In this document: piece by piece, positions 4,907-40,806 of the stretch
Numbering within the stretch: position 1 is the first letter of the stretch
How the letters are laid out: each line of letters begins with the position of its first letter
Source: an uncultured Candidatus Binatia bacterium
GTDB lineage: Bacteria; Desulfobacterota; Binatia; Bin18
DNA: 64,000 bases
Assembly (NCBI GenBank): GCA_965204455.1
Contig: CBDBEO010000001.1
Location: 6,135-70,134 of the forward strand
Direction: 5' to 3'
The notes under the pieces: model-generated
What the model was told of the DNA's origin: nothing
Database searches by the model: none
What the model saw: the letters and a program-made list of their open reading frames with translations, nothing else
Made by a program: the position numbers and the translations under genes

Positions 4907-6496
4907 TCAGGCAGCGCGGTCGGGGTGCGGCTCGGCCCGAAAATAGTCCACAATCGCCCGGCTGAACGCCGCAATCGTATACTCCTGGGGCTGGATGCTG
5001 ACGCGCAGTCCATAGCTGCGGGCCGTCTCGGCCGTGATCGGCCCGATGCAGCCGAGCGCCGTCGTGCCGAGCAGGGCCGGAATATCCTGGTCAGCAATCT
5101 GGTCGGCGTCTTGGTCGGCATCCTGGTCAGCAGTCTGGTCAGCATCCTGGTCGGCAAAGGCGGCCATGAAATTGTGGACCGTGCTGGAGCTGGTGAAGGT
5201 GATCAGATCGATCTGACCGGCTCGCAGCAGGCGGCGCAGCTCTGCGGTCCGGGTGGTGGGACGAACGGTCTGGTACACCCCGATCTCATTGACCTCGGCG
5301 CCGGCGGCGCGCAGGGCTTCGGGCAGGATGTCCCGCGCCTGGGTCGCCCGCGGCAGGAGAATCCGCTGGCCGGCGACCTCCCCGAGTACGGGCAGCAGGG
5401 CTTCGGCGCGGTACTCCGTCGGCACGGCTTCGACCCGCAGGTGGCGGGCTTCCAGGGCGCGGGCCGTCTCCGGGCCGATCGCCGCCAGGCGCACCCCGGC
5501 CAGACTGCGGATGTCGAGTCGGCGCTCGGCCAGGCGCTCAAAGATGTAGAGCACGCCGTTGACGCTGGTAAAAACCGCCCAGTCATAGCTCGGCAGCGCG
5601 TCCAGGGCCGCGTCCAGCCGGTCGGAGGCGGCGACCGGCACGGTTTCAATCGTTGGAAACTGGACCACGGCCGCGCCGTGCTGTTCGAGCCGCTCGACAA
5701 AGCCGCCGGCCTGCCGACGCGGTCGGGTGACCACGATACGCCGACCGAACAGCGGCTTGGTCTCAAACCAGCGCAGCTGTTGGCGCAGCTCGACCACCCG
5801 GCCGACAACCGCCACCGCCGGCGGCTCAAACCCCCGCTGCTCAACCAGATCGGCAATCGTCTCGACCGTGCCGACCAACACGTCCTGATCGGGCCGCGTG
5901 CCCCACCGAACCAGGGCCACCGGCGTGTGGCCGGACAGCCCGTGGCGCACCAAACGCTGCATATTGTTGCGCAGCTGACGGGTGCCCATGAGGAACACCA
6001 GGGTGCCGCCTACCCCGGCCAGGGTGGCCCAGTTGAGGTGCGGGGCGGTGTCCCAGACTTCTTTATGGCCGGTCACAATCGCCACCGCAGACGCGTGGTC
6101 ACGGTGGGTGAGTGGAATCCCGGCATAGGCCGGAACCGCCAGGGCCGAAGTGACGCCCGGCACAATCTCAAACGCAAGACCGGCCTCGACCAGTTCCTGG
6201 GCTTCTTCGCCGCCCCGCCCGAACAGAAACGGGTCGCCGCCCTTGAGCCGGACGACGGTCTGGCCCTGGCGAGCGCGATCCACAATCAGCCGGTTGATAT
6301 CGGCCTGGCTCATGCTCGGGCTGCCGCTGCGCTTGCCGGCGTAGATCAGCTCGGCCTGGGGACGGGCGTGGGCCAGGATGCGCTGATCGACCAGATAGTC
6401 GTACACCACGACATCGGCCTGTTCGAGACAGCGCTTGGCCTTGAGGGTCAGCAGCCCCGGGTCGCCGGGACCCGCGCCAACAAGATACACCGGCAT
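4907..6496 (-). CDS. cobA: Uroporphyrinogen-III C-methyltransferase fused to uroporphyrinogen-III synthase (CobA-HemD fusion)
   Basis: N-terminus MPVYLVGAGPGDPGLLTLKA...GGDPFLFGRGGEE matches CobA/CysG methyltransferase. The C-terminal half, RRIVVTRPRRQ...LITFTSSSTV...GCIGPITAE, matches HemD. Confidence 0.85.
   Translation of the reverse strand: MPVYLVGAGPGDPGLLTLKAKRCLEQADVVVYDYLVDQRILAHARPQAELIYAGKRSGSPSMSQADINRLIVDRARQGQTVVRLKGGDPFLFGRGGEEAQELVEAGLAFEIVPGVTSALAVPAYAGIPLTHRDHASAVAIVTGHKEVWDTAPHLNWATLAGVGGTLVFLMGTRQLRNNMQRLVRHGLSGHTPVALVRWGTRPDQDVLVGTVETIADLVEQRGFEPPAVAVVGRVVELRQQLRWFETKPLFGRRIVVTRPRRQAGGFVERLEQHGAAVVQFPTIETVPVAASDRLDAALDALPSYDWAVFTSVNGVLYIFERLAERRLDIRSLAGVRLAAIGPETARALEARHLRVEAVPTEYRAEALLPVLGEVAGQRILLPRATQARDILPEALRAAGAEVNEIGVYQTVRPTTRTAELRRLLRAGQIDLITFTSSSTVHNFMAAFADQDADQTADQDADQDADQIADQDIPALLGTTALGCIGPITAETARSYGLRVSIQPQEYTIAAFSRAIVDYFRAEPHPDRAA
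5084..5155. repeat. Six copies of an imperfect 12-bp in-frame tandem repeat inside cobA-hemD, encoding an (A/D)DQD low-complexity insert
   Basis: atcctggtcagc / aatctggtcggc / gtcttggtcggc / atcctggtcagc / agtctggtcagc / atcctggtcggc. On the minus strand it translates to FADQDADQTADQDADQDADQIADQD within the HemD domain. Confidence 0.8.
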
Positions 6497-6501
6497 ACGG
6501 C

Positions 6502-7431
6502 TCAGACCTCTGTCGCTTCCAGGCCGGCCAGGATCTCCCGGCCGCCCCGGTCCAGCAGCAGGGCGGCCGTCTCGGTCCCGATCTGGCCGGCCGTTTCGGT
6601 CGGACCGCTACGCTCGTGGCGCAGCAGGCGTTTGCCGTCCGGGCTGGCAACCAGGGCGGCCAGGCGCAGGCTGCCGTTGGCGATTGTGGCCCTGGCCGCC
6701 AGGGGCGTGCGGCAGCTGCCGCCCATGCCGCTCAGAAAGGCGCGCTCGGCCTCGACCGCCCAGGCGGTTTCGGGGTGGTGCAGGGGGGCGAGCAGGGCGG
6801 CGACCTCGTCGCCAGTCCGAATTTCAATCCCCAGCGCACCCTGGCCGATGGCCGGCAGAAATTCCTCGGCGTCGAGCGGAACGCCGTTCTTCAGACTCAG
6901 GCTCAGCCGTTTGAGCCCGGCCGCAGCCAGAATGGTGGCGTCCACCCGGCCTTCGAGCTGGCGGCGCAGACGGGTTTCCACATTGCCCCGCAGGACTTCG
7001 ATCCGCAGGTCGGGGCGCAGGTGCAGGAGCAGGGCCTGACGGCGCAGGCTGCTGGTGCCGACGCGGGTGGCCTCGGGCAGGTCGGCCAGCGACGAGCCGC
7101 CAGCCGAGATGAGTACGTCGCGGGGATCTTCGCGTTCGGGGATGGTGCTCAGGCGGAGTCCGGGCGGCAGCTCGGCCGGCAGGTCTTTCACCGAGTGGAC
7201 GGCCAGATCGACTGTGCCGGCCAGCAGCGCCTGCTCGATTTCTTTGACAAACAAGCCCTTGCCGCCAATCCGGGCCAGCGAGACGTGCTGGATTCTGTCT
7301 CCCGAGGTGCTTATCGGCACGAGTTCGACCCGCAAATCCGGCCAGTGGGCTTCGAGCCGCTTTTTGACCCAGCCGGCCTGCCAGACGGCCAGGGTACTGC
7401 CACGGGTGCCAATCCGAACGGTGCGTTTCAT
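6502..7431 (-). CDS. hemC: Hydroxymethylbilane synthase (porphobilinogen deaminase)
   Basis: 309 aa: MKRTVRIGTRGSTLAVWQA...GGKGLFVKEIEQALL... Confidence 0.9.
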   Translation of the reverse strand: MKRTVRIGTRGSTLAVWQAGWVKKRLEAHWPDLRVELVPISTSGDRIQHVSLARIGGKGLFVKEIEQALLAGTVDLAVHSVKDLPAELPPGLRLSTIPEREDPRDVLISAGGSSLADLPEATRVGTSSLRRQALLLHLRPDLRIEVLRGNVETRLRRQLEGRVDATILAAAGLKRLSLSLKNGVPLDAEEFLPAIGQGALGIEIRTGDEVAALLAPLHHPETAWAVEAERAFLSGMGGSCRTPLAARATIANGSLRLAALVASPDGKRLLRHERSGPTETAGQIGTETAALLLDRGGREILAGLEATEV

Positions 7432-7463
7432 GGACTCAGTCCTGTTGAATCAGTTTTGTTGGG

Positions 7464-8738
7464 TCAGTCCTGGTCGTCATCCAAGCCGAACATCTGCCGC
7501 ACTGCGGTTACACTGGTCGCACCGTCCTCGGCGTTCCCGTTCCGGGTGCGGTGTTTCAGATAGCCGATTGGCGGGTGGAGCAGTTTGTTCATCAAGGACG
7601 CACTCAGCCCCTCAATTGCCCGGCGCGTTTCGGGCGAGCAGTCTTTGAGCCCGGCCAGGGTTTTTTCGACCTCGCGCTGGCGCACGGCCTCGGCTTTCTG
7701 GCGCAGGGCGACAATGGTTGGACTGATGTCTCGACTGGCGTACCACTGCCAGAAGGCCTCGACTTCCTGACTGACAATGGCCTCGGCTTTGCGCGCCTCA
7801 AGCGCTCGCTCGCCCTGATGGTCGGCGACGATCTGTTCGAGGTCGTCAATATCGTACACAAACACATTCTCAAGGTCGTTGAGGCGGGGGTCGAAATTGC
7901 GCGGCACGCCGAGGTCAATCAGAAACATGGGCCGCCGTTTGCGCTCCTGCAGGGCTTCGTGAACACGCTCCGGGGTGAGGTGATAGGCGCTGCCCCCGGC
8001 CGAGCCAATCACCACATCGGCCAGGTGCAGCTGCCGGGGGAATTGCTCGAACGGCACGACGGTCCCGGCGCAGGTACTGGCCAGCTCGACCGCCCGCTGG
8101 AAGGTCCGGTTGGTGATGAGCAGGGTACCGATGGCCCTGGCCCGAAGCTGGCGGATGGCCTGCTGGCTCATCTCTCCCACGCCAATGACCATGGCGGTCT
8201 TGTCGGTCAGCTGGTCAAAAATCCGACACGCCAGCTCGACCGCCACCGAGCTGACCGAGACGGGTTTGGCCGCAATGGCGGTTTCGCTCCGCACCCGCTT
8301 GGCGACCGAGAAGGCCTTGTGGAACCAGCGGTGGAGCACCGTTCCCAGCGTGCCGAGCGAGGCCGAGGCGGTATACGCGTCTTTGATCTGTCCCAGGATC
8401 TGGGGTTCGCCCACGACCAGGGAATCGAGGCTGGAGGCGACGCGGAACACGTGTCTGACCGCCTGTCTGTCGGTATGGGTGTACAGGTGGGCTTCAAACA
8501 GCTGGAGCGGCAGGCCCTGCTCCTGGGCCAGAAAGGTTTTGATGTGGCGGCTGGCCTGTGGCGGATCGTGAGCCCAGGCCACGACTTCGACCCGGTTGCA
8601 GGTCGAGATGATCGCGCCTTCCTGGATGCCGGGCGCCTCGACCAGGCGGGGCAGGGCGTGGTGCAGCATGCCGTCGCTGAAGGCCAGCTTCTCGCGCACC
8701 TCGACCGGCGTCGTATGGTGGTTGAGGCCAACGATCAT
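7464..8738 (-). CDS. hemA: Glutamyl-tRNA reductase
   Basis: ...MIVGLNHHTTPVEVREKLAF...ISTCNRVEVV... is a conserved HemA N-terminus. The likely start is the internal Met at 8738 rather than the track start at 8825. Confidence 0.9.
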   Translation of the reverse strand: MIVGLNHHTTPVEVREKLAFSDGMLHHALPRLVEAPGIQEGAIISTCNRVEVVAWAHDPPQASRHIKTFLAQEQGLPLQLFEAHLYTHTDRQAVRHVFRVASSLDSLVVGEPQILGQIKDAYTASASLGTLGTVLHRWFHKAFSVAKRVRSETAIAAKPVSVSSVAVELACRIFDQLTDKTAMVIGVGEMSQQAIRQLRARAIGTLLITNRTFQRAVELASTCAGTVVPFEQFPRQLHLADVVIGSAGGSAYHLTPERVHEALQERKRRPMFLIDLGVPRNFDPRLNDLENVFVYDIDDLEQIVADHQGERALEARKAEAIVSQEVEAFWQWYASRDISPTIVALRQKAEAVRQREVEKTLAGLKDCSPETRRAIEGLSASLMNKLLHPPIGYLKHRTRNGNAEDGATSVTAVRQMFGLDDDQD

Positions 8739-8754
8739 CAGGCTGGGGTCCGGC

Positions 8755-9570
8755 TTAGCCAAATTCGCCTCCATGCCGACCCGGCAAGAACCGCACGCCC
8801 AGGAACGAGACCGCGAGCACGGCAAAACACACGATGGTCAGGGTCGCGGCGCGGCGTCCGCGCCAGCCGACGCTGCGATAGTGGAGCAGGAAGGCGTACA
8901 GGATCCAGCTGACCAGAGACAGGACCGGCCGCGGCTCCCAGATCCAAAAATGGCCCCAAGCGTGGCGAGCCCACACCGCGCCGCTGACAATGCCCAGGGT
9001 CAGCAGCGGGAAGCCCCACGACAGGGAGCGATAGTTCAGCTTGTCGAGGGTCTCCAGCGAGGGCAGGTGGCGCAGCACCCCGCCGATTTTTTTGCCCTTG
9101 AGCCGTTTTTCCTGAAACACATAGATCAGGCTGGCGAAGAAGGCGACGCAGAACACGGCGTTGCCCAAAAAGGCGAGCGTCACGTGGACCGGCAGCCAAC
9201 CGCTCTGCAGGGCCGGCGGCAGGGCCCGCGCCTGGGTATACAAGACAAACACGCCTAAGGTCAGGATGAAGCCAATCGGACTGACCACCGCCCCCAACAC
9301 GGTCAGGGACGAGCGCCACTGGACCAGCAGGAACAGGCCGCTGGTCATCCAGGTGAGGAAGGACACCGCCTCATACGGGTTGGTGACCGCAATGTAGCCG
9401 ACCGACAGCGAACGGACCATAATCGCCCCGCCGTGGGCGGCGCAGGCGACCAGCAGCAGGCCGGGCGCGAGGCGGCCAAAGAGCTGCTGGGGCGACACCA
9501 GGGCGAGCAGAAAACCCACCGTGCTCAGCAGATAGAAGACGAGGGCCGATGTCAGCAGGACAATTTCCAC
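8755..9570 (-). CDS. Cytochrome c assembly protein CcsA/ResC family (HemX-like; hemA-associated)
   Basis: 271-aa polytopic membrane protein with a W-rich CcsA-like region (...WARHAWGHFWIWEPRP...). It sits upstream of hemA, as in Bacillus hemAXCDBL. Confidence 0.7.
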   Translation of the reverse strand: MEIVLLTSALVFYLLSTVGFLLALVSPQQLFGRLAPGLLLVACAAHGGAIMVRSLSVGYIAVTNPYEAVSFLTWMTSGLFLLVQWRSSLTVLGAVVSPIGFILTLGVFVLYTQARALPPALQSGWLPVHVTLAFLGNAVFCVAFFASLIYVFQEKRLKGKKIGGVLRHLPSLETLDKLNYRSLSWGFPLLTLGIVSGAVWARHAWGHFWIWEPRPVLSLVSWILYAFLLHYRSVGWRGRRAATLTIVCFAVLAVSFLGVRFLPGRHGGEFG

Positions 9571-9573
9571 CGG

Positions 9574-10236
9574 TCATACCTGAAAGTCGAGGTGCTCCAG
9601 ACTGTAGGCTTCTCCCAGGGTTGCGCGCAGCAGGCCGTCGAGCTTATCAATTTTCCGGTCGCGGAGATAGTCGAGCAGGGGAGAATTGACGAGGCGGTGA
9701 AAACGGTGCTGGCGTTCCTGGCTTGACAGCCGCTCTCGGGTCACCCGCTCTCGGATACGAGCCAGCAGTTGGAGTGCCTGGGCGTACTCGGGACCAAAGT
9801 CTGCCGACAGCTGGCGGCGGATTTTTTGGGCCATGGCCGGGCTTGTCCCGCTGGTGGACACGGCGATTCTCAGGTCGCCCTGGGAGACGACGGCCGGGAC
9901 GATGAATGAACACACGGCCGGGCGATCGGCGACGTTCAGCAACACACCTGCGGCGTCCGCCTCCACAGCCAGACGCTGGTGCAAATCCTGGTCTGAGGTG
10001 GCCGCAAACACCAGACGAAAGCCGCGCAGATCACCGCTCTGGTAGGCGCGCCGCAATGTCCTGATCCGCAGTGCGGCGGCCCAGGCTTCGAGCTGCCGGG
10101 TCAGCCTCGGGCTGATCACGCTGACCCGGGCCTGGGCGTCGAGCAGAGACGCCACTTTCCGCTCGGCGACGCTTCCGCCCCCGATGACGAGGCATGGCTG
10201 GCCGCTCAGGTCGATAAAGATTGGATAATAGCCCAT
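9574..10236 (-). CDS. sirC: Precorrin-2 dehydrogenase / sirohydrochlorin ferrochelatase (SirC/CysG N-terminal domain-like)
   Basis: ...YPIFIDLSGQPCLVIGGGSVAERKV... is an NAD-binding siroheme synthase N-terminal domain. The likely start is MGYYPIF at 10236. Confidence 0.75.
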   Translation of the reverse strand: MGYYPIFIDLSGQPCLVIGGGSVAERKVASLLDAQARVSVISPRLTRQLEAWAAALRIRTLRRAYQSGDLRGFRLVFAATSDQDLHQRLAVEADAAGVLLNVADRPAVCSFIVPAVVSQGDLRIAVSTSGTSPAMAQKIRRQLSADFGPEYAQALQLLARIRERVTRERLSSQERQHRFHRLVNSPLLDYLRDRKIDKLDGLLRATLGEAYSLEHLDFQV

Positions 10237-10336
10237 AGCGTTCGTGGTCGGCCCAAAGGCTCGACCACTCTGGAACGCTAGCACAGCCGAAAAAGCAGAG
10301 GAATGCCCTGCGCGCCCCAGCTTGGAACGCTGCCGG

Positions 10337-12127
10337 TCAATAGCTCAGGGGGATGTATAAGGTCTGGCCGATCCGCAGCCGACGGGGGTTCTTCACCCCG
10401 TTGAGGCGCCTGAGCACGCCCGCAGTCGTCCCGTAGCGCTTGGCAATCGTGTCCAGGGTCTGGCCGCGCTGGACTGTATGGGTCGCGTAGCTGCCGGGCA
10501 GGCGCAGCTGCTGGCCGGGACGAATGAAGTTCACCCGCTCGATGCCGTTGAGTTTCTTGAGGGTGGCAACGGTGGTCTGATAGCGCTGGGCGATCGTGCC
10601 CAGGGTTTGACCGTGCTGGACCGTATGGGCGTAGTCTGAATGGCTGGCTTGCGGGTGGGCGGTGTGGGACGGAGCTGCGGCGACGGGCGCTTGGGCCATG
10701 ACAGTCGGTGTCTGAGGGGCGGCTTCAGGTGGCGTGGGTTGGGACGGAGCTGCGGCGGTGGGCGCCTGGGCGATGGCGGTCGGCGCCTGGGACTGGGGCA
10801 GGCGCAGGCGCTGGCCGACCCGGATGAAATTGACATTCGGGATATGGTTCAGCTCTTGCAGGGCCTTGACGCTGGTCCGGTAGCGTCGGGCGATGATGTC
10901 CAGGGTCTGGCCGGGCTGCACGGTATGCGAGTTGATATCCAGGGCCGCATACTGGCGGCGGAAATGGTCGGCCGTGCCATCCGGCAGACGCAGCCGGTAG
11001 CCGCTGGGGATGAAGCGCCTGCCCCGACGGATAGATCTGCCCAGGGCGGGGTTGAACTCAATCAGCCGCTCGGTTGAAATGTTGGCGCAGCGGGCCGCAA
11101 CGCCCAGCGACAGATAGCCGTCCAGGGCGACCTCGTCGTAGCGAAACGGGGCGTCGCGCTTGATCTCGCCAAAGTAGGCGGTCGCGTTTTTCTCGACTTC
11201 GAGGGCGGCCAGGAATTCGGGATAAAAGTTGCGCGAGGCAAAACCGAAGCGGCGGCTCTTGTAGGAACGGATAATGCGGGCAATATCGGTGGTGCCGAGC
11301 TTTCTGACGGCTCTGGCCATGCCGGCTTGACCGTGGTTGTAGGCGGTAATGGCCAGCGGCCAGGTGCCGAGTCTGTCGTAGTTGGCTTTGAGCAGCTTGG
11401 CCGCCGCCCGGGCGGCCAGGATCGGGTCGCGCCGCTCGTCAATCAGCCCATCAACCCGCATGAACAGCCGCCCGGTCGAGCGGATGAACTGCCACACCCC
11501 GGCCGCGCCGGCTTTTGAGTAGGCGTTGATATTGAACGTGGATTCGACCAGCGGCAGACGGGTCAACCCAACCGGCAGACCAGCCTGGCGGAAAATCGCC
11601 TCCATCTCGTCCAGATAGCGCCCCGAAATCTGAATCCCCTGCCGGAACTTTTCGCCGATCCCGGTCTGTGACCGAACCCGGTCCTCGGCTGCGGCGCGGA
11701 GAAACTTCCTGGAGCCGGGGATGTCGCTGAACAGCCGCTTGATCCGACGTTCTTCGGCCGTCAGCCGGGTGGCCTTGTTCGCGCGGTGCAGCTTGCGCAG
11801 GGTCGCCCGAATGTGTCTGATCTCGCGCTCGACGCGCTGTTTTCTCAGCCGGGCGAGGGTGCGCGGCCGGTCCGCATGCGTCTCATACAAGGACCGCAAA
11901 TCCAGCTCCTTGTAGATCGTCATGTGAACGCGGTCGTGCAGAATGACCGTCTGTCTCGAGGTGGTGAATACCCGTTGCCAGAACTCGACCTGTGGCCGGA
12001 GGGCCGACGGGTAGGGAAAGGGGTGAAAACTGGCCGTCTGCTCGGCCCGGAGTCCACCGGGCGGCAGGACGAGCACGATTCCGAGCAGGGTTCCGATCAA
12101 GACCCGCAAGATGTTCAGCGACCGCAT
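10337..12127 (-). CDS. Membrane-bound lytic murein transglycosylase (MltD-like): SLT domain plus three C-terminal LysM repeats
   Basis: Signal peptide MRSLNILRVLIGTLLGIVLVL, SLT-like core (...VESTFNINAYSKAGAAGVWQF...) and repeated LysM motifs (HTVQPGQTLDIIARRY..., HTVQHGQTLGTIAQRY..., HTVQRGQTLDTIAKRY...). Confidence 0.8.
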   Translation of the reverse strand: MRSLNILRVLIGTLLGIVLVLPPGGLRAEQTASFHPFPYPSALRPQVEFWQRVFTTSRQTVILHDRVHMTIYKELDLRSLYETHADRPRTLARLRKQRVEREIRHIRATLRKLHRANKATRLTAEERRIKRLFSDIPGSRKFLRAAAEDRVRSQTGIGEKFRQGIQISGRYLDEMEAIFRQAGLPVGLTRLPLVESTFNINAYSKAGAAGVWQFIRSTGRLFMRVDGLIDERRDPILAARAAAKLLKANYDRLGTWPLAITAYNHGQAGMARAVRKLGTTDIARIIRSYKSRRFGFASRNFYPEFLAALEVEKNATAYFGEIKRDAPFRYDEVALDGYLSLGVAARCANISTERLIEFNPALGRSIRRGRRFIPSGYRLRLPDGTADHFRRQYAALDINSHTVQPGQTLDIIARRYRTSVKALQELNHIPNVNFIRVGQRLRLPQSQAPTAIAQAPTAAAPSQPTPPEAAPQTPTVMAQAPVAAAPSHTAHPQASHSDYAHTVQHGQTLGTIAQRYQTTVATLKKLNGIERVNFIRPGQQLRLPGSYATHTVQRGQTLDTIAKRYGTTAGVLRRLNGVKNPRRLRIGQTLYIPLSY

Positions 12128-12183
12128 GACTCCTCCTCCATGCCTCTCCACAACGTCCACTCGGCCACACAGTATGGCTGGAC

Positions 12184-13515
12184 TTAGCGCAACCCTAACT
12201 CCTCCAACGGTCCCCGGTCGGAGACCGGAGCCGGGGAGACACCCGACTGCAGGGCGACCGAGCCCGGCGTGCGTTGGTATGAATCGGGCAGGTCGATTTC
12301 TTTGGCGTACTCCCGCAGCTCGGGCATGACCTCATTGGCGATCAGCCGCATGCTGGTCAGCCGATCCTCGTTGCTGACCGTGCCCTGGACATTAAAGAAC
12401 ACGAACACGCCCGGTCGCAGAATCTGCAACAGCAGTTTCAGCTTGGGGATGACGGTCTTGGGCGAGCCGATAATCAGCTGATGGTTGTTCTGGACCTTCT
12501 GGTAGCCGGACAAGAGCTTTTTGCGGACCACGTCGTAGTCGGCCTCCGGCCGCAGTTCGCCGTCTTTGGACTCGCGCAGCTTGTCGGGGCTGACGCCCAG
12601 CCAGCTGCCGCCCGGATGGCGGGCCAGCATTTTGATCGCGCCCTTGGAGTTATAGCCCGGCGGCAGGGTGTGCTCGGGCCGGGAAAAGGCGTTTTGCCCC
12701 CCGCCATACACGAAATTTCTGCCCAGCTCCTGGGCTTTTTCGTCCGTTTCGGCCACGAAGCTCGGAATCAGATAGCCGAAGTTCTCCGGACCGGCCTGGT
12801 AGCCGAGTTTGGCCGCCTCGTCGGCATACATATCCCACAGGTCGCAGGTCGGACCGAGCGCGGTGCCGAGACCGATATACGGGTAGCGGTGCTGGGCGCA
12901 CCAGCGCACCGTCTCCGGACTCAGGACGCCCGGAATCCACATCTGGGGGTAGGGTTTCTGGTAGGGCAGGGCCCACGGGTTGACGTGACGGTAGTGGAAG
13001 TGCTTGCCCTCGTAGCGCCACGGGCCGGGCTTGGTCCAGGCCTGGACGATAAAGTCGTGAGCCTCATTGAACATTTCGCGGTTGTAGGCCGGGTTGGCAT
13101 TGTTGAAGAACTGTTCGCTGCCCGCCCCGCGCACCCAGCCGGTTACCAGCCGGCCGCGCGAGATGAGGTCGATCTCGGCCAGCTCCTCGGCCATGCGCAG
13201 CGGGTGTTTGATGACCGGCAGGGGGTTGCCGATGAGGACGATTTTGACCTTGCTGGTGATGCGGGCCAGGATGGACGCCTCGACGTTCATCACGCTGCCC
13301 ATGCAGAACGGGTTGCCGTGGTGTTCGTTGAGAGCCACCGCGTCAAAGCCCAGTTCCTCGGCGTAGCAGTATTCGTCCAGGAAATAGTTGTAGTCGTCGG
13401 CCGCCTTGTGATGATCGAAGTGCCGGTTCGACAGGGCGAAAAAGGCCTTGTTTTTCAGAACCTCGTCCTCGTCGACCCAGCGGTACGGCCGTTCGGTGAA
13501 ATAGGCGAGTTTCAT
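12184..13515 (-). CDS. LLM-class (luciferase-like) flavin/F420-dependent oxidoreductase, large form
   Basis: 443 aa with the luciferase-like monooxygenase fold pattern (...GFDAVALNEHHGNPF...). Confidence 0.75.
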   Translation of the reverse strand: MKLAYFTERPYRWVDEDEVLKNKAFFALSNRHFDHHKAADDYNYFLDEYCYAEELGFDAVALNEHHGNPFCMGSVMNVEASILARITSKVKIVLIGNPLPVIKHPLRMAEELAEIDLISRGRLVTGWVRGAGSEQFFNNANPAYNREMFNEAHDFIVQAWTKPGPWRYEGKHFHYRHVNPWALPYQKPYPQMWIPGVLSPETVRWCAQHRYPYIGLGTALGPTCDLWDMYADEAAKLGYQAGPENFGYLIPSFVAETDEKAQELGRNFVYGGGQNAFSRPEHTLPPGYNSKGAIKMLARHPGGSWLGVSPDKLRESKDGELRPEADYDVVRKKLLSGYQKVQNNHQLIIGSPKTVIPKLKLLLQILRPGVFVFFNVQGTVSNEDRLTSMRLIANEVMPELREYAKEIDLPDSYQRTPGSVALQSGVSPAPVSDRGPLEELGLR

Positions 13516-36527: not shown

Positions 36528-36569
36528 GCTGAGGTCTGCCTTTTCAGGGTGCGTGTCAGGAGGACTGGT

Positions 36570-37331
36570 ATGAGCAAACAATTTGACGGAAAAGTCGCTT
36601 TGGTGACTGGCGGCAGCTCGGGCATCGGGCGAGCCTCGGCGCTGGCCTTTGCCCGTGAGGGAGCCCGGCTCGTTGTTGCTGATGTTGATGTCGAAGGCGG
36701 CCAACACACCTGCCGGCTGATTGAGCAGGCCGGCGGCGAAGCCGTATTTGTGGCAACCGATGTCTCGCAGGCGGCTCAAGTCGAAGCGGCGGTCAAGCGG
36801 ACCATCGACCGCTATGGGCGGCTGGATTATGCCCATAATAATGCCGGCATTGAGGGCATGGTCCTGACCCCAACGGCAGAGTGGACCGAAGAGGCCTGGC
36901 ACCGGGTCATCGGGGTGAATCTCAAAGGGATATGGCTGTGCATGAAGTATGAGATTCCGCATCTGCTCAAGCAGACCGGTGGGGCGATTGTCAACACTGC
37001 CTCAATCGCCGGCTTGGTCGGCAGTCGCTCAGCCGCCTACGGGGCCAGCAAACACGGCATCGTCGGGCTCACCAAAACAGCCGCCCTGGAATATGCCCGG
37101 TCAGGTATCCGGGTGAATGCCGTGTGTCCAGGTGTGATCCGTACTCCGATGCTGGAAAGAAGCTTAGAGCGTATGCCGGATCTCGAAGCCCGTTTTGTCG
37201 AGGTCGAGCCCATCGGTCGTATGGGTTCGCCGGAAGAGATCGCCGAGGCCGCAGTCTGGCTGTGTTCTGACGCGGCGTCGTTTGTGACCGGTCATGCCAT
37301 GGCCGTTGATGGCGGGTATGTGGCACGCTAG
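36570..37331 (+). CDS. SDR family NAD(P)-dependent oxidoreductase
   Basis: RBS caggagg, then start MSKQFDGKVALVTGGSSGIGRA (TGxxxGxG). The catalytic motif is YGASKHGIVGLTK. Confidence 0.9.
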   Translation: MSKQFDGKVALVTGGSSGIGRASALAFAREGARLVVADVDVEGGQHTCRLIEQAGGEAVFVATDVSQAAQVEAAVKRTIDRYGRLDYAHNNAGIEGMVLTPTAEWTEEAWHRVIGVNLKGIWLCMKYEIPHLLKQTGGAIVNTASIAGLVGSRSAAYGASKHGIVGLTKTAALEYARSGIRVNAVCPGVIRTPMLERSLERMPDLEARFVEVEPIGRMGSPEEIAEAAVWLCSDAASFVTGHAMAVDGGYVAR

Positions 37332-37402
37332 CATTTTTCTGGAAATTATCTGGAGCAGGCGGCCGTCTCACCACGGGCGCCACTCACACCCGGGGTAGGA
37401 CG

Positions 37403-38530
37403 CTAATCGCGGAAGCGCGGCATGACCTTTTCGGCGAACAGCTCGAAGCTGCGTAGCACCACGTCGCGGGGCAGCAGGCCGTCGCCAATCAGGAAGAACA
37501 TTTCGTCGGTGCCGATTTTGATCGCCAGTTCGATTTTGCGCGATACGCTGTCCGCGTCGCCGATCAGCGGCTCGGCCACCCCCAGGCCGAACGGAATGCC
37601 CCATTGCTCCCAGAACCAGCGGGTGTCGGCCAGGGCGCGCTGGGTCTGGGCGGCGCTGTCGGTCACCACCAGCTGTCCGCCCAGGGCCAGCTCGGTGCCG
37701 GGCGGGACGGTGCGGCCGGCCTTGTCGGCTTCTTCGCGGTAGATGCTCTGTAGCCGGGCGCACAGCTCTTCGTGCAGGAGAATGATGATCGGTTTGCCGC
37801 CCTCGCGGGCCCAGTAGCGAATCGACTCGGTGTTATGGGTAAACCCGGCGTACAGCGGCGGGTAGGGCTTTTGGTAGGGGCGCGGAGCGATGCCGACCTG
37901 CTCGATGCGCATATCCTCCGTCACCCCCGCGCCATAGCGGGTATAGGCTTCCATGGGATGCGGGTTTGTGGCGTCGGGGGGCGGGAACTGCCAGAACTCG
38001 CCCCGGTGGCAAAAGGTGTCCTGGGTCCAGGCTTTCTTGATGATCGCCACGCCTTCTTCAAACACCCGGCGGTTGAGCAGGTCGGAGGCCTGTTTTTTAT
38101 TCCAGTGGCCGACCGCCTCGACGCCCGGCCGGGTGGCATAGTTCTGGACCCAGCGCGCTTGATAGCCGCGCACGAAGGCGACGTTGAGCCGGCCTTGCAG
38201 CATGTGATCCATCATGGCCACATCCTCGGCCACCCGCAGCGGGTTGTGGGTGTTGAGCACATAGCCCAGCACGTCGACGCGCAGCCGCTCGGAATGCTGG
38301 CCGATGAACATGCTCAGCAGGCCCGGGCTGCCGGTCGCCTCCATGCCCTCGATCTGCAGGTGATGCTCGGGATGGCCGAAGCCGGCAAAGCCGGCCTGGT
38401 CGCACAAGCGGACGTAGTCCTTGAGATCGTTCAGCATGCGCTGGTACAGGGCCGGGTTTTTTCCGGCCATGCCGGCCTCCAGCTCCGGGCGGGTACCGAC
38501 CGTTCCGTAGGCAATCGCGTGAAATTTCAT
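37403..38530 (-). CDS. LLM-class flavin-dependent oxidoreductase
   Basis: 375-aa luciferase-like pattern: ...AGFAGFGHPEHH... Confidence 0.8.
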   Translation of the reverse strand: MKFHAIAYGTVGTRPELEAGMAGKNPALYQRMLNDLKDYVRLCDQAGFAGFGHPEHHLQIEGMEATGSPGLLSMFIGQHSERLRVDVLGYVLNTHNPLRVAEDVAMMDHMLQGRLNVAFVRGYQARWVQNYATRPGVEAVGHWNKKQASDLLNRRVFEEGVAIIKKAWTQDTFCHRGEFWQFPPPDATNPHPMEAYTRYGAGVTEDMRIEQVGIAPRPYQKPYPPLYAGFTHNTESIRYWAREGGKPIIILLHEELCARLQSIYREEADKAGRTVPPGTELALGGQLVVTDSAAQTQRALADTRWFWEQWGIPFGLGVAEPLIGDADSVSRKIELAIKIGTDEMFFLIGDGLLPRDVVLRSFELFAEKVMPRFRD

Positions 38531-38595
38531 CGTGCTCCTTTCAGCTCAGCACGGAGGTCGAGCGAGGCGTGGTGATCGGCCAGAACCAGCTGTAC

Positions 38596-39012
38596 TCATG
38601 GGCAGAGATCTTTCTTGAGCAGGTGTTTGTGCCGTTGGGTTTGATAGATATTGCCTCCAACGATTGATTTGAAGTCAGCGTGTAGATCTGTATCACTTGA
38701 GACCAACACGCGGACTCCAGAAACCTGAGCCAGAGCGAGGATGTCCGGGTCGTTCGAGCGTAACTTTGGCAGCCTCTTCTTCTCCTGCTCAACGGCTTCC
38801 ATGGGAAAGTCTTTGAGCTTCCCGGCTCTTCTGTATTGCGTAAACCGATTTCTCACTCTTGGCGATCTCTCTAATTCATCCTTCATTTTGCCCACCGGCG
38901 AATAGACAATTGCTCCGTTCTTGTTGTCTACCCAATCTCTCACAGGCTTCATATCTTCATTGTCGGGAGCGAGAAACAGGCCGTAGTTATCCGTGTCCAG
39001 AATAAGGCACAT
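38596..39012 (-). CDS. PIN-like domain nuclease (putative), inside a low-GC island
   Basis: Starts MCLILDTDNYGLF (the PIN strand-1 Asp motif). Four acidic positions have PIN-like spacing: D6, E45, D96/98 (NDPDILALA) and D117/119 (SSDTDLH). Local GC is about 45-50%. The alternative start at 39036 is non-ATG. Confidence 0.5.
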   Translation of the reverse strand: MCLILDTDNYGLFLAPDNEDMKPVRDWVDNKNGAIVYSPVGKMKDELERSPRVRNRFTQYRRAGKLKDFPMEAVEQEKKRLPKLRSNDPDILALAQVSGVRVLVSSDTDLHADFKSIVGGNIYQTQRHKHLLKKDLCP

Positions 39013-39022
39013 GATTCTGCTC

Positions 39023-40363
39023 TTAACTAAAACCAAGTAATTTATCGGATTCTTTGATAAAGAATTCCCGGTAGCTGGACGGAGCGCCTAACAGATTCGC
39101 CTGTCCGTCAAACATGATGTTGTGAACCTTGACGCCATTGCCTGCTGGCTCCAGGTAGATAAGCGAAACGTCTTCCGGCGATACTCTCTTGTTCATAATC
39201 TCGATACGGGCACGATCAACCATATAGTCGCTATGTGTTTCGATGATAAAATTATGCTTCTTCTGTTTGATCAGATCAATCAGCAAGGACGATAGCTCTG
39301 CTTGTCCTCTAGGGTGTAGGTGAACCTCCGGTTGTTGCATCAAAAACGGCACCCCCGGACGCGAATTTAACATGCGTACCAAAATAGGCAGAAGCTGATT
39401 TACGCCGTAGCCTACATCTATCATATTGACCTTCGGTCCTCTGACTTTGATTTGCAGTTGAAAGGGGTCACCAATGGATTTTCCGAGCCTTCTGACGTGG
39501 ATGTCTGAGAACAACCCAGAAGATTGACCAAATTCAATCAGTCTTTCCTTGAGTGCTTTCCACTCCTTCTCATTCGCCCTGAACATGTTCATGAGCACCA
39601 TAGGGATATCACTACCCTCGGGACTGATGGTTTCCTTCAAAGGGTTATAGGTCCGCTGCGGCTTGGAACGAATGGGTGCGAAGCTGTAAGGTCTTTCTTC
39701 GTACGGTCCATACCGTCTCCCAGATAAGAACTCTGGGAATCTTTCAACAAATTTGTAAAAATTCTCTTCCTCGGAAGACAGGTCCCTCTTCTCCGCCGCT
39801 TCAAACGCCATATAAGTCAAGTTAGACGATACGTTCGTATTCAATCGAGACCGATTTATCCTAACGACAAATTTCCTCAATCCCTCTTCTCCGACGCTCT
39901 CGCTAATTTCAGAGTTAGGGCCAGGAATCCTTTGTCTGTTTGGTTCATCAATCTTCTCTTTACCTTCGATGAAGACCATCTCACCCTCGGGAAGAGTTAC
40001 ACGCTGCTCCTGAACAACAGGCTCAGAACCCTTCTCTTTCTCCGTTAGGGTCAGGATATACTCTGTGCCACCTCTTTTGTTTTCGGAGCTGTACTCAAAG
40101 CCAAATCTGAAGCTTTTCTTTCGGGGGCTGGATTTCCTTACGATATCGGCGAACGTTCCCATTTGATAGGGATCGACGTTAAAATCCAAGTGGGACTCAT
40201 ATGGTGTCGGGCTTGCGAAAGTGTGTAAGGTTTGAAAACAGCCGAGAACGGTGGTTTTTCCGGTGCTATTCTCGCCGACCAGGAAGGTCAGGGGCCGGAT
40301 GTTGAACTCTTGTCTGCCGGCGAAACAACGAACGTCTTCGATTATCAATTTTCGGAGGTTCAC
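39023..40363 (-). CDS. AAA_21/AAA_15-type SMC-like ABC ATPase (OLD/AbiL/GajA-N-like, no nuclease domain), inside a low-GC island
   Basis: Walker A LVGENSTGKTT. C-terminal ...VPFLMQQPEVHLHP... then ...NFIIETHSDYM (H-loop THS). The Walker B position reads QQPE rather than the canonical DEPE. 446 aa. Confidence 0.75.
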   Translation of the reverse strand: MNLRKLIIEDVRCFAGRQEFNIRPLTFLVGENSTGKTTVLGCFQTLHTFASPTPYESHLDFNVDPYQMGTFADIVRKSSPRKKSFRFGFEYSSENKRGGTEYILTLTEKEKGSEPVVQEQRVTLPEGEMVFIEGKEKIDEPNRQRIPGPNSEISESVGEEGLRKFVVRINRSRLNTNVSSNLTYMAFEAAEKRDLSSEEENFYKFVERFPEFLSGRRYGPYEERPYSFAPIRSKPQRTYNPLKETISPEGSDIPMVLMNMFRANEKEWKALKERLIEFGQSSGLFSDIHVRRLGKSIGDPFQLQIKVRGPKVNMIDVGYGVNQLLPILVRMLNSRPGVPFLMQQPEVHLHPRGQAELSSLLIDLIKQKKHNFIIETHSDYMVDRARIEIMNKRVSPEDVSLIYLEPAGNGVKVHNIMFDGQANLLGAPSSYREFFIKESDKLLGFS

Positions 40364-40503
40364 ACCGTTACCTCCACAATCGTCATGGTGTCGTTGCCGA
40401 AGATGTCCACGACTTTGACGGCGATCTTATGCCGGCCCGGCGAGTATTCATGCCGATCATCATGCAGGAGCGCTCTGTACGTGCGTGACATCAGAATGTT
40501 TCG

Positions 40504-40806
40504 CTAAAACGGCAGGAAGCTCCGAAACAGGCTCCCGTCGTCGTCGGCCTCGACGGGTGGACCAAGCTCGTCGTCCTCGTCCGAGGCAAAGGGGTTCAGA
40601 CGGGCGAACAGGCCCGGCTTGACGATCACGTCTCCCTCTCGGGGTTCTACGTCTTCGGGACTGGCATAGACCGGCATCTCTGACCGGACGTTCTCGTCAA
40701 TGTACCGCTTGCCGACGAGGTGGTCTTCGTTATCGCCGCCAAAAATCCAGAACGAACACCCGCTCAGCGCCAGACACCACCACACACCCAGGAACACCTG
40801 TTTCAT
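40504..40806 (-). CDS. Hypothetical lipoprotein
   Basis: MKQVFLGVWWCLALSGCSF (lipobox LSGC), 100 aa, acidic C-terminus. Confidence 0.4.
   Translation of the reverse strand: MKQVFLGVWWCLALSGCSFWIFGGDNEDHLVGKRYIDENVRSEMPVYASPEDVEPREGDVIVKPGLFARLNPFASDEDDELGPPVEADDDGSLFRSFLPF

Follow-up and report, generated by a model that had tools for sequence, protein, structure and literature searches.

A low-GC ATPase-PIN gene pair at the site of a former type III restriction-modification operon in Candidatus Binatia: a probable divergent relative of the antiphage system HEC-03

Gene content and borders of the low-GC island

The window (the whole 64-kb stretch of DNA that was analyzed) has a mean GC content of 0.641 (sd 0.037 in 600-bp windows), and positions 38401-40600 form the only stretch in which 600-bp windows fall below 0.56, the lowest value (0.455) differing from the mean by about 5 sd. 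Over approximately 38650-40300 the GC content is 0.45-0.50 vs. 0.60-0.69 in the flanks, in line with the drop from about 65% to 45-50% described in the first-pass annotation of this sequence. The cassette as delimited in Table 1 stands out against a GC content of 0.647 in the remaining window. It carries two genes, both on the minus strand, for an ABC ATPase and a PIN-domain protein, with the expected spacer of 10 bp between them. The two co-directional open reading frames lie where they had been placed, but they do not make up the whole island, as had been thought: it continues upstream beyond the ATPase start for approximately 90 bp, into the remnant of a methyltransferase gene that had been overlooked. 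The island is flanked by a Bac_luciferase/LLM gene and by a gene for a 100-aa protein with a lipobox (LSGC). Both flanks had been recognized correctly, but the LLM gene is not a core gene at this site, as it is absent from the orthologous locus in two related genomes.

Table 1. Features of the low-GC island and its borders (positions in the window).
Feature	Position	Strand	Remarks
Right-hand host flank arm, GCGTGGTGATCGG on + strand	38567..38579		Flush with cassette end
Low-GC cassette	38580..40452		1873 bp, GC 0.478; homologous to intact Mod-ATPase-PIN-Res operons elsewhere
PIN-domain protein gene, predicted RNase effector	38596..39012	-	138 aa from ATG
ABC ATPase gene, NsnB / HEC-03 ATPase type	39023..40363	-	446 aa, GTG start; Pfam and PADLOC matches
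Hypervariable ATPase segment, residues 85-222	39698..40111	-	Candidate sensing surface; conservation profile
44-codon mini-ORF, type III DNA methyltransferase (Mod) remnant	40360..40491	-	Starts at Mod start-codon position
GGAGG Shine-Dalgarno	40371..40375	-	7 nt upstream of ATPase GTG, inside retained Mod tail; read from sequence
Left-hand arm, CCGATCATCATGC on + strand	40453..40465		Flush with other cassette end, inside 36-nt filler of mini-ORF

There is no tRNA gene within the window, and no integrase, transposase or target-site duplication was found in the island or, at the same locus in a related genome (L007), among the Pfam-annotated genes. A promoter and terminator scan gave counts near the shuffled expectation, with no promoter standing out upstream of the pair.

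The ATPase

Profile matches place the larger protein among the ABC ATPases of the OLD/AbiL/GajA/PtuA/AriA type. In Pfam it matches AAA_15 (8e-18), AAA_21 (3.7e-13) and AAA_23 (6.5e-6), and no Toprim, DUF4435, HNH or other nuclease domain was found in it with Pfam, NCBIfam or PADLOC, which confirms its earlier description as an AAA_21/AAA_15-type ATPase without a nuclease domain. Among the PADLOC defense models the best match is NsnB (1.1e-40; residues 3-440 against positions 2-340 of the 345-position profile), followed by PDC-M55A (1.1e-35), HEC-03B (PDLC04148; 2e-24, residues 3-414 against positions 2-416 of 458) and AriA (1.1e-20); GajA, PtuA and Old match as well. A PDB match was obtained to OLD (6p74, 2.4e-5). 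The structure model of the ATPase is poor (mean pLDDT 64.7, with residues 1-35 below 50), and the Foldseek matches that it gave (Rad50/SMC heads, retron/Septu PtuA and OLD, at TM 0.2-0.3) fit an ABC ATPase, allow no finer discrimination and were not used for subfamily assignment.

Across 78 ATPases that are paired with a PIN gene, the Walker A residues G30, G35 and K36 are near-invariant (76-77 of 78), and G318-Y319-G320 (GYG), Q343, P345 and E346 are invariant. A GxG signature and an arginine at the Q-loop position are present. At the Walker B position the acidic and catalytic residues are replaced by two glutamines, Q343 (78/78) and Q344 (76/78), which could mean that the ATPase is crippled. 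As Walker A is intact, the combination suggests that the protein may be an ATP-binding switch rather than a motor.

Residues 85-222 are hypervariable, with a mean majority fraction of 0.31 vs. 0.62-0.72 in the rest of the protein. Relatives whose other ATPase segments are 70-85% identical have 24-36% identity here, and no nucleotide-level homology to L001 or L016 was found across this stretch. Such a conservation profile fits a sensor role, for which this insert is a candidate.

The PIN-domain protein

In the mechanical list of open reading frames the smaller gene starts at a TTG (39036), upstream of the ATG. Full-length homologues are mostly approximately 138 aa long and the aligned ones start with MCLILD, supporting the ATG start. 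The resulting N-terminus, MCLILDTDN, is conserved along with the acidic residues. The protein itself has no match in Pfam, NCBIfam, PADLOC or PHROGs, and a profile search of PDB sequences found nothing; its annotation rests on fold comparison, profile-profile comparison and the scanning of distant family members. Fold comparison identifies a PIN fold in the 138-aa protein, with VapC toxins as its structurally nearest neighbors, and of the 53 proteins in the broadened family, 43 match Pfam PIN (PF01850) at E ≤ 1 (best 3.9e-11).

On the modeled structure, the protein is a PIN fold with four acidic residues at the canonical positions: D6 after β1, E46 in the helix 41-49, D88 capping the helix 89-98, and D107 after β4. 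D6, D88 and D107 do not vary among the 53 diverse family members, and E46 is conserved to at least 90%. Judged by these residues the metal site D6-E46-D88-D107 appears intact, and RNase activity is predicted. The fold, the four acidic residues and the MxxILDTDN start had thus been read correctly from the sequence.

Clustering at 50% identity divides the family into 1,716 clusters. Full-length members of the top 150 are approximately 130-170 aa long with a lone exception, P0292, of 327 aa, whose N-terminal part matches ATPase models and not a toxin domain.

Pairing, distribution and selection

In all 80 loci, from many phyla, the PIN gene is immediately preceded by the ATPase gene, and in most relatives the two genes abut or overlap. 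The first-pass annotation had deduced horizontal acquisition from the base composition, and the finding that cassette GC is below that of the flanks in 75 of 76 loci fits horizontal mobility. It had also proposed a survey of homologue neighborhoods; this established the pairing, but revealed no classical defense-island context, which was not found within the window either, the immediate neighbors of the pair being mostly ordinary metabolic genes (76 upstream and 74 downstream neighbors examined). The collections searched contained no copies of the pair on plasmids or phages. The nearest relatives are, by their names, almost all metagenome-assembled genomes of sponge symbionts from many phyla, and the truncated layout of the window recurs in two more metagenome assemblies, with an identical PIN protein and an ATPase of 99.8% identity.

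Comparison of the window copy with its relatives gave a dN/dS of 0.07-0.25 for both genes (0.11-0.19 for the ATPase), values that integrate over the past and say nothing on selection after the loss of the restriction-modification (R-M) genes described below. With that reading of dN/dS, the pair is intact and appears to be under purifying selection.

Traces of a lost type III R-M operon

The mini-ORF upstream of the ATPase gene (translation MSRTYRALLHDDRHEYSPGRHKIAVKVVDIFGNDTMTIVEVTV, followed by a stop) ends in 31 codons that correspond to the C-terminus of a type III methyltransferase (Mod), preceded by a 36-nt filler. The Mod proteins of L005, L009, L011, L013, L016 and L020 have C-termini that match this tail (common ending HECQPGRHKIAVKVVDIFGNDTMTIVEV.V and stop), and the flank homology between the window and L016 extends to the ATG at 40489. 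The TGA stop of the mini-ORF (40362-40360) overlaps the GTG of the ATPase gene (40363-40361), and the same GGAGG as in the window is found in L005, L009 and L013.

In related Ca. Binatia genomes the order Mod-ATPase-PIN-Res is found at the same chromosomal site, which holds an intact operon in L016 (with Mod intact), a decaying operon in L014, and in the window the pair alone with 44 codons of Mod. The Mod proteins match the PADLOC model MTase_III, with a best E-value of 6e-109 among the upstream neighbors. By blastn, window positions 40452..38580 are 84% identical to L004/L005 over 1873 bp. The homology to L005 ends approximately 10 bp short of the Res start; Res is absent from the window, where its position is taken by the LLM gene and an SDR gene. 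A functional type III R-M system at this locus can be rejected, as both Mod and Res are gone. From these alignments the window pair is the remainder of a Mod-ATPase-PIN-Res operon and not a clean two-gene acquisition, as had first been assumed, and the Mod remnant together with the operon order at the same site in relatives indicates that the pair outlived its host R-M system. Decayed R-M genes next to an intact pair are found in L011, L012, L014 and L080 as well as in the window.

Over the whole set, a type III methyltransferase is the upstream neighbor in 8 of 76 loci and a type III restriction enzyme the downstream neighbor in 10 of 74, while type I S subunits occur in 4; some three quarters of all 80 loci lack a recognizable R-M gene within 10 kb.

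The pair-only site may have arisen by insertion at a palindrome or by decay in situ, and a search for empty sites does not separate the two. When joined, the two arms that border the cassette form a perfect palindrome (TGATCGG/CCGATCA), with 11 of 13 positions complementary; the chance of so good a flush match is 2e-5, or 6e-4 when ±2 nt of slack is allowed. In 75 other loci, inverted repeats flanking the pair are not enriched (22.7% vs. 18.7% for a null of shifted positions). Looked up by exact sequence, the flanking LLM protein had no record, and a metagenome scan with it found 7 relatives, all in other gene contexts, and no empty site. The layout of an empty site expected under insertion at the palindrome is lipoprotein-TGATCGGCCGATCA-LLM.

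Homology to HEC-03

HEC-03 is a validated two-gene antiphage system of an ABC ATPase and a VapC-like PIN protein (Payne et al., 2024 preprint; bioRxiv 10.1101/2024.01.29.577857). It is the Hma-embedded candidate 3 from Pseudomonas cichorii ATCC 10857 (WP_025259138.1 and WP_025259137.1); it reduced plaquing by orders of magnitude, required both genes to do so, and was validated outside its Hma context (Payne et al., 2024). The pairing of an ATPase with a PIN protein had been considered unnamed in the first-pass annotation. This does not hold: HEC-03 is such a pair, to both components of which the window proteins appear to be distant homologues, and Menshen NsnB-NsnC is another known association of an ATPase with a PIN-like domain (PMC12065111).

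The window ATPase is 25% identical to WP_025259138.1 over 187 aa (BLASTP, E 1e-17), and the motifs DVGxGVxQ.LP, xQPE.HLHP and IIE(S/T)HS are common to both. In an hhalign comparison of the PIN family with the HEC-03 PIN family, the probability was 83.8%, where 90-95% is the usual comfort level, with an E-value of 7.9e-6 over 140 columns at 20% identity. The D-E-D-D positions fall on D/E6, E52, D110 and D129, which are invariant in the HEC-03 PIN family, and we regard this link as good, not overwhelming. The PADLOC model for the HEC-03 PIN protein (PDLC04147, HEC-03A) matched neither the window protein nor three family members at E ≤ 10, while as a control it found the genuine HEC-03 PIN protein at 9.4e-86. 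The pair therefore matches an already named system in its architecture and by remote homology, but not by the current detection models.

Proposed function and alternative explanations

The pair is probably a divergent, so far unannotated relative of HEC-03, that is, an antiphage module in which an ATPase regulates a PIN RNase. That it acts as a self-contained module of the HEC-03 type, with the ABC ATPase as sensor and regulator and the VapC-like PIN RNase as effector, is the reading that we favor with moderate confidence; the defensive function is proposed by analogy with the HEC-03 experiment. In such a module both proteins would be made together from one transcript, and the ATPase would oligomerize and keep the PIN protein in an inactive complex. 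This complex is modeled on what AlphaFold 3 predicts for NsnB-NsnC and on the structures solved for Septu and PARIS (see PMC12065111). A phage-derived cue, read by the insert of residues 85-222, and/or altered ATP binding would change the complex and free or activate the nuclease, which would then cleave RNA (tRNA, rRNA or mRNA), so that translation would halt and the infection abort. Both the trigger and the RNA target are presumed by inference. In the ancestral setting the pair lay inside a type III R-M operon, flanked by mod and res, with the ATPase start coupled to the mod stop; that it is intact after the loss of the R-M genes argues that the module works independently.

As the PIN protein is structurally nearest to VapC toxins, the pair might instead be an addiction module in the style of toxin-antitoxin (TA) systems, with the ATPase as neutralizer, that mainly stabilizes itself and originally its R-M island. 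The Pfam entry for AAA_21 reads 'putative AbiEii toxin, Type IV TA system', the cassette has outlasted its decayed host operon, and it is scattered among unrelated metabolic genes with a foreign GC content, like selfish elements. There is, however, no small VapB-like antitoxin, the upstream gene encoding a 446-aa ABC ATPase, and the homologous HEC-03 pair protected from phage with both genes needed. The lack of plasmid or phage copies in the collections searched also speaks against this explanation, which we consider unlikely, although TA and abortive-infection functions overlap and the choice is partly a matter of emphasis.

A slightly weaker case can be made that the pair assists or guards a type III R-M system (cf. 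PrrC-EcoprrI) and works only with Mod and Res, for instance by firing once the R-M complex is inhibited by an anti-restriction protein from a phage; in the window it would then survive as a relic that is inactive or constitutively silent. For this speaks that, both at the orthologous site and in the nearest relatives, the pair sits between mod and res and its ATPase start codon overlaps the stop of mod; further points are the R-M neighbors counted above (8/76, 10/74 and 4), and the PrrC precedent and rationale for embedding discussed in the HEC paper (Payne et al., 2024). This is hard to reconcile with the roughly three quarters of loci that lack a recognizable R-M gene nearby, with the several lineages in which the R-M genes are degraded and both pair genes are full-length, and with the recurrence of the truncated layout in two further metagenome assemblies. 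The low dN/dS points the same way, though averaged over history and not a measure of selection since R-M loss, as does the validation of HEC-03 outside its Hma context. We judge this explanation to be even more unlikely than an addiction module.

Slightly above both of these we place the possibility, still not a likely one, that the family is natively a dedicated guardian of type III R-M with Mod-coupled translation. Its ATP-binding switch would monitor Mod/Res or anti-restriction factors via the insert and release the active PIN RNase once restriction is subverted; the cassette could outlive its host R-M system and spread, and the family, with its active PIN protein as effector, may be ancestral to the adaptor-plus-toxin architecture of NsnC. 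If so, PrrC would have a two-protein counterpart in type III R-M, carried by a cassette that spreads among unrelated bacteria sharing one habitat.

If the HEC-03-type module that we favor is recognized as such, a sizeable and widely transferred family would be added to the immune modules that combine an ATPase with a nuclease, and 'guilt by embedding' would be extended to type III R-M operons, a system type outside the HEC survey (Payne et al., 2024). Current defense-finding models miss the pair, since the HEC-03 PIN model, Pfam and NCBIfam are blind to the small protein. The series from L016 via L014 to the window is a natural experiment in which an embedded module is kept while the surrounding R-M system is lost, and the near-invariant QQ and the hypervariable insert offer starting points for how this class of ATPase senses infection, also in HEC-03 and Menshen.

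Comparison with known systems

VapBC can be rejected, as there is no small upstream VapB gene; neither a VapB antitoxin nor a DNA-binding partner is present, the gene in this position being that of the ATPase, and Pfam PIN does not match the window protein itself. With Septu (PtuAB), PARIS (AriAB), Gabija (GajAB) and OLD the pair shares the OLD-type ABC ATPase superfamily and an ATPase that regulates (here by proposal) a bound nuclease. The effectors of these systems are HNH (PtuB) or Toprim (AriB, GajA, OLD) proteins, neither of which is found here: OLD, Gabija and PARIS are rejected for want of a Toprim domain or partner, and Septu for want of HNH. In the PrrC and RloC anticodon nucleases, an ABC-type ATPase controls an RNA-cleaving effector inside type I R-M loci, as a second line of defense. 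The likeness to these is the encoding of an ABC-type ATPase and an RNA-cleaving (here predicted) effector inside an R-M operon; in PrrC and RloC the ATPase and a different nuclease domain are fused, whereas here there are two proteins with a PIN nuclease, the host system is type III R-M, and most copies lie outside R-M loci. PDC-M55, the second-best match of the ATPase, is a three-family cassette in the supplement of the HEC paper (Payne et al., 2024), and the small protein had no match among the PDC-M55 models.

In Menshen, NsnC starts with an inactive PIN-like domain that serves as adaptor for a fused C-terminal toxin and that NsnB is predicted to bind; NsnB is reported to have a GxG signature, an Arg-for-Gln Q-loop and a non-DE Walker B, and the system often adjoins R-M systems, type III included (PMC12065111). 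The pair resembles it in its NsnB-like ATPase (the best defense-library match, over the full length) with the same three features, in a partner that begins with a PIN-fold domain, and in frequent R-M association. The differences are a stand-alone PIN protein that keeps its catalytic residues, no NsnA (ParB-DUF262) and no DUF3696. DUF3696, at the C-terminus, is the defining domain of the HEC-03 and NsnB ATPases and the predicted binding partner of the PIN-like domain; its model PF12476 was matched by none of 42 ATPase relatives at E ≤ 0.1. DUF262 is not among the families matched by at least two of the 76 upstream or 74 downstream neighbors and is absent at the window locus. We therefore reject Menshen, and for all these resemblances find it highly improbable that the pair is a degenerate NsnABC system from which NsnA and the NsnC toxin domain have disappeared.

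From HEC-03 the pair differs in that its PIN protein is missed by the corresponding model, with a PIN family identity of approximately 20%, and in that its ATPase matches HEC-03B less well than NsnB and PDC-M55A. The annotation of the HEC-03 ATPase includes a DUF3696 domain, whereas this domain was not detected in the ATPase relatives here; the Walker B position is QQ in the window family and EQ in HEC-03, and the host operon here is a type III (Mod/Res) system. What the two have in common is a co-directional, abutting gene pair in which an ABC ATPase of approximately 450 aa is followed by a stand-alone VapC-like PIN protein of approximately 140-160 aa. Their ATPases share the GxG signature and the xQPE.HLHP Walker B region, and both pairs are found embedded in an operon for DNA modification-based defense as well as free-standing.

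Gene layout of the low-GC island

The GC content drops to 0.45-0.50 across approximately 38650-40300, compared to 0.60-0.69 in the flanks. In a scan of the whole 64 kb with 600-bp windows (mean 0.641, sd 0.037), only those starting at 38401-40001 were below 0.56, with a minimum of 0.455. Two ORFs on the (-) strand fill this dip, confirming the first-pass annotation of a dip over exactly two co-directional genes. The start of the smaller ORF was placed at the ATG that yields a 138-aa protein, as most full-length homologues are approximately 138 aa and the aligned ones begin with MCLILD. The island is bordered by a Bac_luciferase/LLM oxidoreductase gene on one side and a gene for a 100-aa lipobox protein on the other.

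Coordinates of features in the window and in loci carrying relatives of the pair (L numbers)
Locus	Feature	Position	Strand	Description
Window	ATPase ORF	39023-40363	-	446 aa, GTG start, inside GC dip
Window	Small-protein ORF	38596-39012	-	138 aa from ATG; 10 bp past ATPase stop
Window	Hypervariable ATPase segment	39698-40111		ATPase residues 85-222
Window	Mod remnant (mini-ORF)	40360-40491	-	44 codons
Window	DNA homology to intact operons	38580-40452		last ~90 bp of mod plus pair; ends 10 bp short of res start
Window	Arm at right breakpoint	38567-38579		host sequence GCGTGGTGATCGG, ends 38579
Window	Arm at other breakpoint	40453-40465		host sequence CCGATCATCATGC, begins 40453
Window	SDR (+) / LLM (-) genes	36530-38579	+/-	GC-rich; at the position of Res
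Window	Left flank	46932-40489		matches L016 1-6454, 85% nt identity
Window	Right flank	36529-28803		matches L016 13174-20376
L016	Res	10416-13173		
L011 (=L001)	Res fragments	10482-11095		Res reduced to N- and C-terminal fragments; "TnsA-like" 134-aa ORF is the Res C-terminus
L012	R-M decay	8221-8642		type III, beside intact pair
L014	R-M decay	7689-8659 and 10437-13124		type III: Mod internal deletion, Res split by frameshift
L080	Res remnant	9080-9163		28 aa
L070	Tandem pairs	6863-10417		two ATPase+PIN pairs beside Res gene
L036	Interrupted ATPase gene	7410-9617		interrupted by ~2.2 kb
L050	Interrupted PIN gene	10309-11123		interrupted by ~0.8 kb

The small protein is a PIN domain

The small protein has no match in the family libraries (Pfam, NCBIfam, PADLOC, PHROGs), nor in a profile search of PDB sequences. 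Its structure model, based on a 41-sequence alignment, is confident (pLDDT 93.3, pTM 0.87), and the best 22 Foldseek matches are PIN-domain proteins, nearly throughout of the VapC type. Residues D6 (after β1), E46, D88 (helix N-cap) and D107 (after β4) are invariant in this alignment, occupy the canonical PIN D-E-D-D positions, and are still conserved in a widened 53-sequence alignment. Pfam PF01850 (PIN) does not match the window protein itself, but is matched by 43 of the 53 family members (best 3.9e-11). Based on the model, the fold matches, the acidic residues and the PF01850 matches in relatives, the small protein is a PIN domain, and the earlier assignment of a PIN-like protein with four acidic residues was right.

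Searched with a profile, 1.84 billion representatives yielded 1,716 clusters of the family at E<=1e-3. Among the best 150, full-length members are stand-alone proteins of approximately 130-170 aa, with a single exception (327 aa) whose N-terminal part matches ATPase models. The family is large and missed by current models.

Cys2 and a C-terminal L-C-P (C137) are invariant in the 41-sequence alignment. The PIN family of the antiphage pair HEC-03 also has an invariant C-terminal LCP, together with two more invariant cysteines (C23, C27). The conserved cysteines might form a metal site or an ATPase contact.

The ATPase has an unusual Walker B region

The larger protein matches Pfam AAA_15 (8e-18), AAA_21 (3.7e-13) and AAA_23, and the Pfam search revealed no nuclease domain, in agreement with the first-pass annotation of an AAA_21/AAA_15-type ATPase lacking one. 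A fold search with the weak AF2 model (pLDDT 64.7) returned Rad50/SMC/PtuA/OLD-like ABC ATPases and nothing finer. Among 78 paired ATPases, Walker A residues G30, G35 and K36 are near-invariant, the signature GYG (GxG) is invariant, and the Q-loop region has a conserved R237. The Walker B region reads h-h-Q343-Q344-P-E-x-H-L-H-P, with Q343 in 78/78 and Q344 in 76/78. This essentially invariant QQ is an unusual feature of the family: EEPE of the solved OLD ATPase structure 6p74 aligns to QQPE of the window protein, the HEC-03 ATPase has EQPE, and NsnB of the Menshen system (NsnABC) is reported to have EN (PMC12065111). Judged by these motifs, the clade may lack the canonical catalytic glutamate and may serve as an ATP-binding switch.

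Residues 85-222 are hypervariable, with 24-36% identity where relatives share 70-85% elsewhere, and are therefore a candidate sensing surface; this accords with the idea that ATPase inserts set specificity (bioRxiv 10.1101/2024.01.29.577857). The segment also appears mosaic.

Conservation and distribution of the pair

From 214 relatives of the small protein identified in a scan of GTDB species genomes, 80 loci were retained. An ATPase homologue lies directly upstream of the PIN gene in all 80, bearing out the pairing; it is a single full-length match in 77 and fragmented in L023, L030 and L036. Both genes show dN/dS values of 0.07-0.25 against relatives. Of 76 loci, 75 have a pair with a GC content below that of the flanks; the difference exceeds 10 points in 29.

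The 80 closest genomes (L009-L088) are nearly all sponge-symbiont MAGs of many phyla, with habitat inferred from names only, and include Ca. Binatia, Poribacteria, Latescibacterota, Entotheonella, Porisulfidus, Poriferihabitaceae, Nitrospirales, Dehalococcoidia and Gammaproteobacteria. GC of the cassette stays within 0.36-0.57 regardless of that of the host (0.40-0.68). This range of hosts, together with a cassette GC independent of theirs, suggests exchange across phyla within one habitat.

At the L070 locus the two PINs of the tandem pairs share 36% and 44% identity with that of L005, and Mod lies ~7 kb downstream. The interrupted copies in L036 and L050 look like disruptions by insertion sequences; a Mutator-family transposase is the downstream neighbour in three loci. 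In five Poribacteria loci (L061, L068, L071, L072, L076) a BatB-like VWA gene is found a short way upstream of the pair (~6000-8700); its product is 28% identical to the VWA protein of 903 aa in the window. This gene is the nearest upstream ORF in four, with a short ORF between in L071; L072 has MoxR, DUF58 and BatA as well. The window, L014 and L016 have the same kind of VWA neighbour in a different phylum, which could reflect chance, a hotspot for insertion or a functional connection.

The pair as the remaining core of a type III restriction-modification island

Directly upstream of the ATPase start the (-) strand reads …HEYSPGRHKIAVKVVDIFGNDTMTIVEVTV followed by a stop, which is the C-terminal end of a type III methyltransferase (Mod); the TGA of this remnant overlaps the ATPase GTG. 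The mini-ORF starts where the ATG of Mod lies (window CTGATGTCACGC, L016 GTGATGGTCAGG), ends at the stop of Mod and still includes the ATPase's GGAGG ribosome-binding site. The related loci L004-L006 have the gene order N6_N4_Mtase, ATPase, PIN, ResIII, and L001-L003 have Mtase, ATPase, PIN, Res fragment. The first-pass annotation, which treated the locus as a plain two-gene acquisition, missed this embedding in type III restriction-modification (R-M). According to PADLOC, MTase_III lies next upstream in 8/76 loci and REase_III next downstream in 10/74; four neighbours are type I S subunits and four are the MADS ATPase mad3, and the remainder are metabolic genes.

On both sides, the window shares synteny with two Ca. 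Binatia MAGs, L016 and L014 (left-flank protein identities to L016: MoxR 93%, DUF58 85%, BatA 84%, VWA 89%, lipoprotein 72%). Between the flanks, L016 carries intact Mod-ATPase-PIN-Res, L014 a Mod with an in-frame internal deletion and Res as two ORFs, and the window the mini-ORF and the pair, with no Res. The orthologous site occurs in at least two states. As both genomes have Res in place of the SDR and LLM genes, the LLM gene is variable at this locus and not core as the first-pass annotation had it. R-M has also decayed around an intact pair in L011, L012 and L080, which with L014 are independent cases. The truncated layout recurs in L007 and L008, which are independent metagenome assemblies (PIN identical, ATPase 99.8% identical). 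The organism of the window is accordingly related to Ca. Binatia. Given the synteny and the graded loss of the operon, the window pair is the core that remains of a type III R-M island, and L016, L014 and the window form a natural series in which the embedded module is kept while R-M decays.

How the present shape arose can be read in two ways. The host arms at the breakpoints are complementary at 11/13 positions and, when joined, form a perfect 14-bp palindrome (TGATCGG-CCGATCA, containing GGCC/CGGCCG) with the cassette on its dyad axis; the chance of a flush match is 2e-5, or 6e-4 with ±2 nt slack. These flush inverted arms suggest that the cassette inserted at a host palindrome; they might mark insertion at a hairpin or cleavage site. 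Flanking inverted repeats were not enriched at other loci, and an LLM protein look-up and a metagenome scan found no empty site (flanks without cassette). In-situ decay, in contrast, is suggested by the preserved start-codon region of Mod and by the complete operon that L016 has at the orthologous site. The cassette is nearer to that of L005, which has a different genomic context (84% nt), than to that of L016 (75-81% in alignable parts). Its PIN has L009 as nearest relative (dS 0.36) and its ATPase has L005 (dS 0.59, versus 1.21 to L009). Alleles have therefore been exchanged, and the differing nearest relatives of PIN and ATPase point to recombination within the cassette.

Proposed mode of action

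By homology and analogy, the pair probably acts through a PIN RNase that would be held by the ATPase and released on a phage cue. That it is instead an addiction module is unlikely, and a guardian that depended on the R-M system and is now a relic is slightly less likely still.

Comparison with HEC-03 and Menshen

The best PADLOC matches of the ATPase, all near full length, are NsnB (1.1e-40), PDC-M55A (1.1e-35), HEC-03B (2e-24) and AriA (1.1e-20), with weaker matches to GajA, PtuA and Old. Menshen thus supplies the closest ATPase model, and an ATPase/PIN-like interface has been predicted for it (PMC12065111). Membership in Menshen was rejected, as the locus lacks NsnA, DUF3696 (0/42 ATPase relatives) and the NsnC architecture of an inactive PIN joined to a toxin.

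HEC-03 consists of an ABC ATPase and a VapC-like PIN protein, was discovered embedded in Hma operons, and cut plaquing by orders of magnitude with both genes required (Payne et al., bioRxiv 10.1101/2024.01.29.577857). In the P. cichorii representative, a 461-aa "DUF3696 domain-containing protein" precedes a PIN of 157 aa, and the two genes overlap. PADLOC swaps the names used in the paper's text, so that HEC-03A is the PIN and HEC-03B the ATPase. Besides the HEC-03B match, the window ATPase matches the HEC-03 ATPase sequence (E 1e-17) and shares its motif layout. The HEC-03A model does not detect the window PIN, while a genuine HEC-03 PIN was matched at 9.4e-86. The HEC-03 PIN family (36-sequence profile) aligns end to end with the window PIN family profile (83.8% probability, E 7.9e-6), pairing D6, E46, D88 and D107 with its invariant D/E6, E52, D110 and D129. 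The first-pass annotation did not recognize the pairing as one of the named systems. The pair is not an unrecognized class of defence system: it is left unannotated by current models and belongs, as a divergent member, to the ATPase-plus-PIN antiphage modules of the HEC-03 kind.
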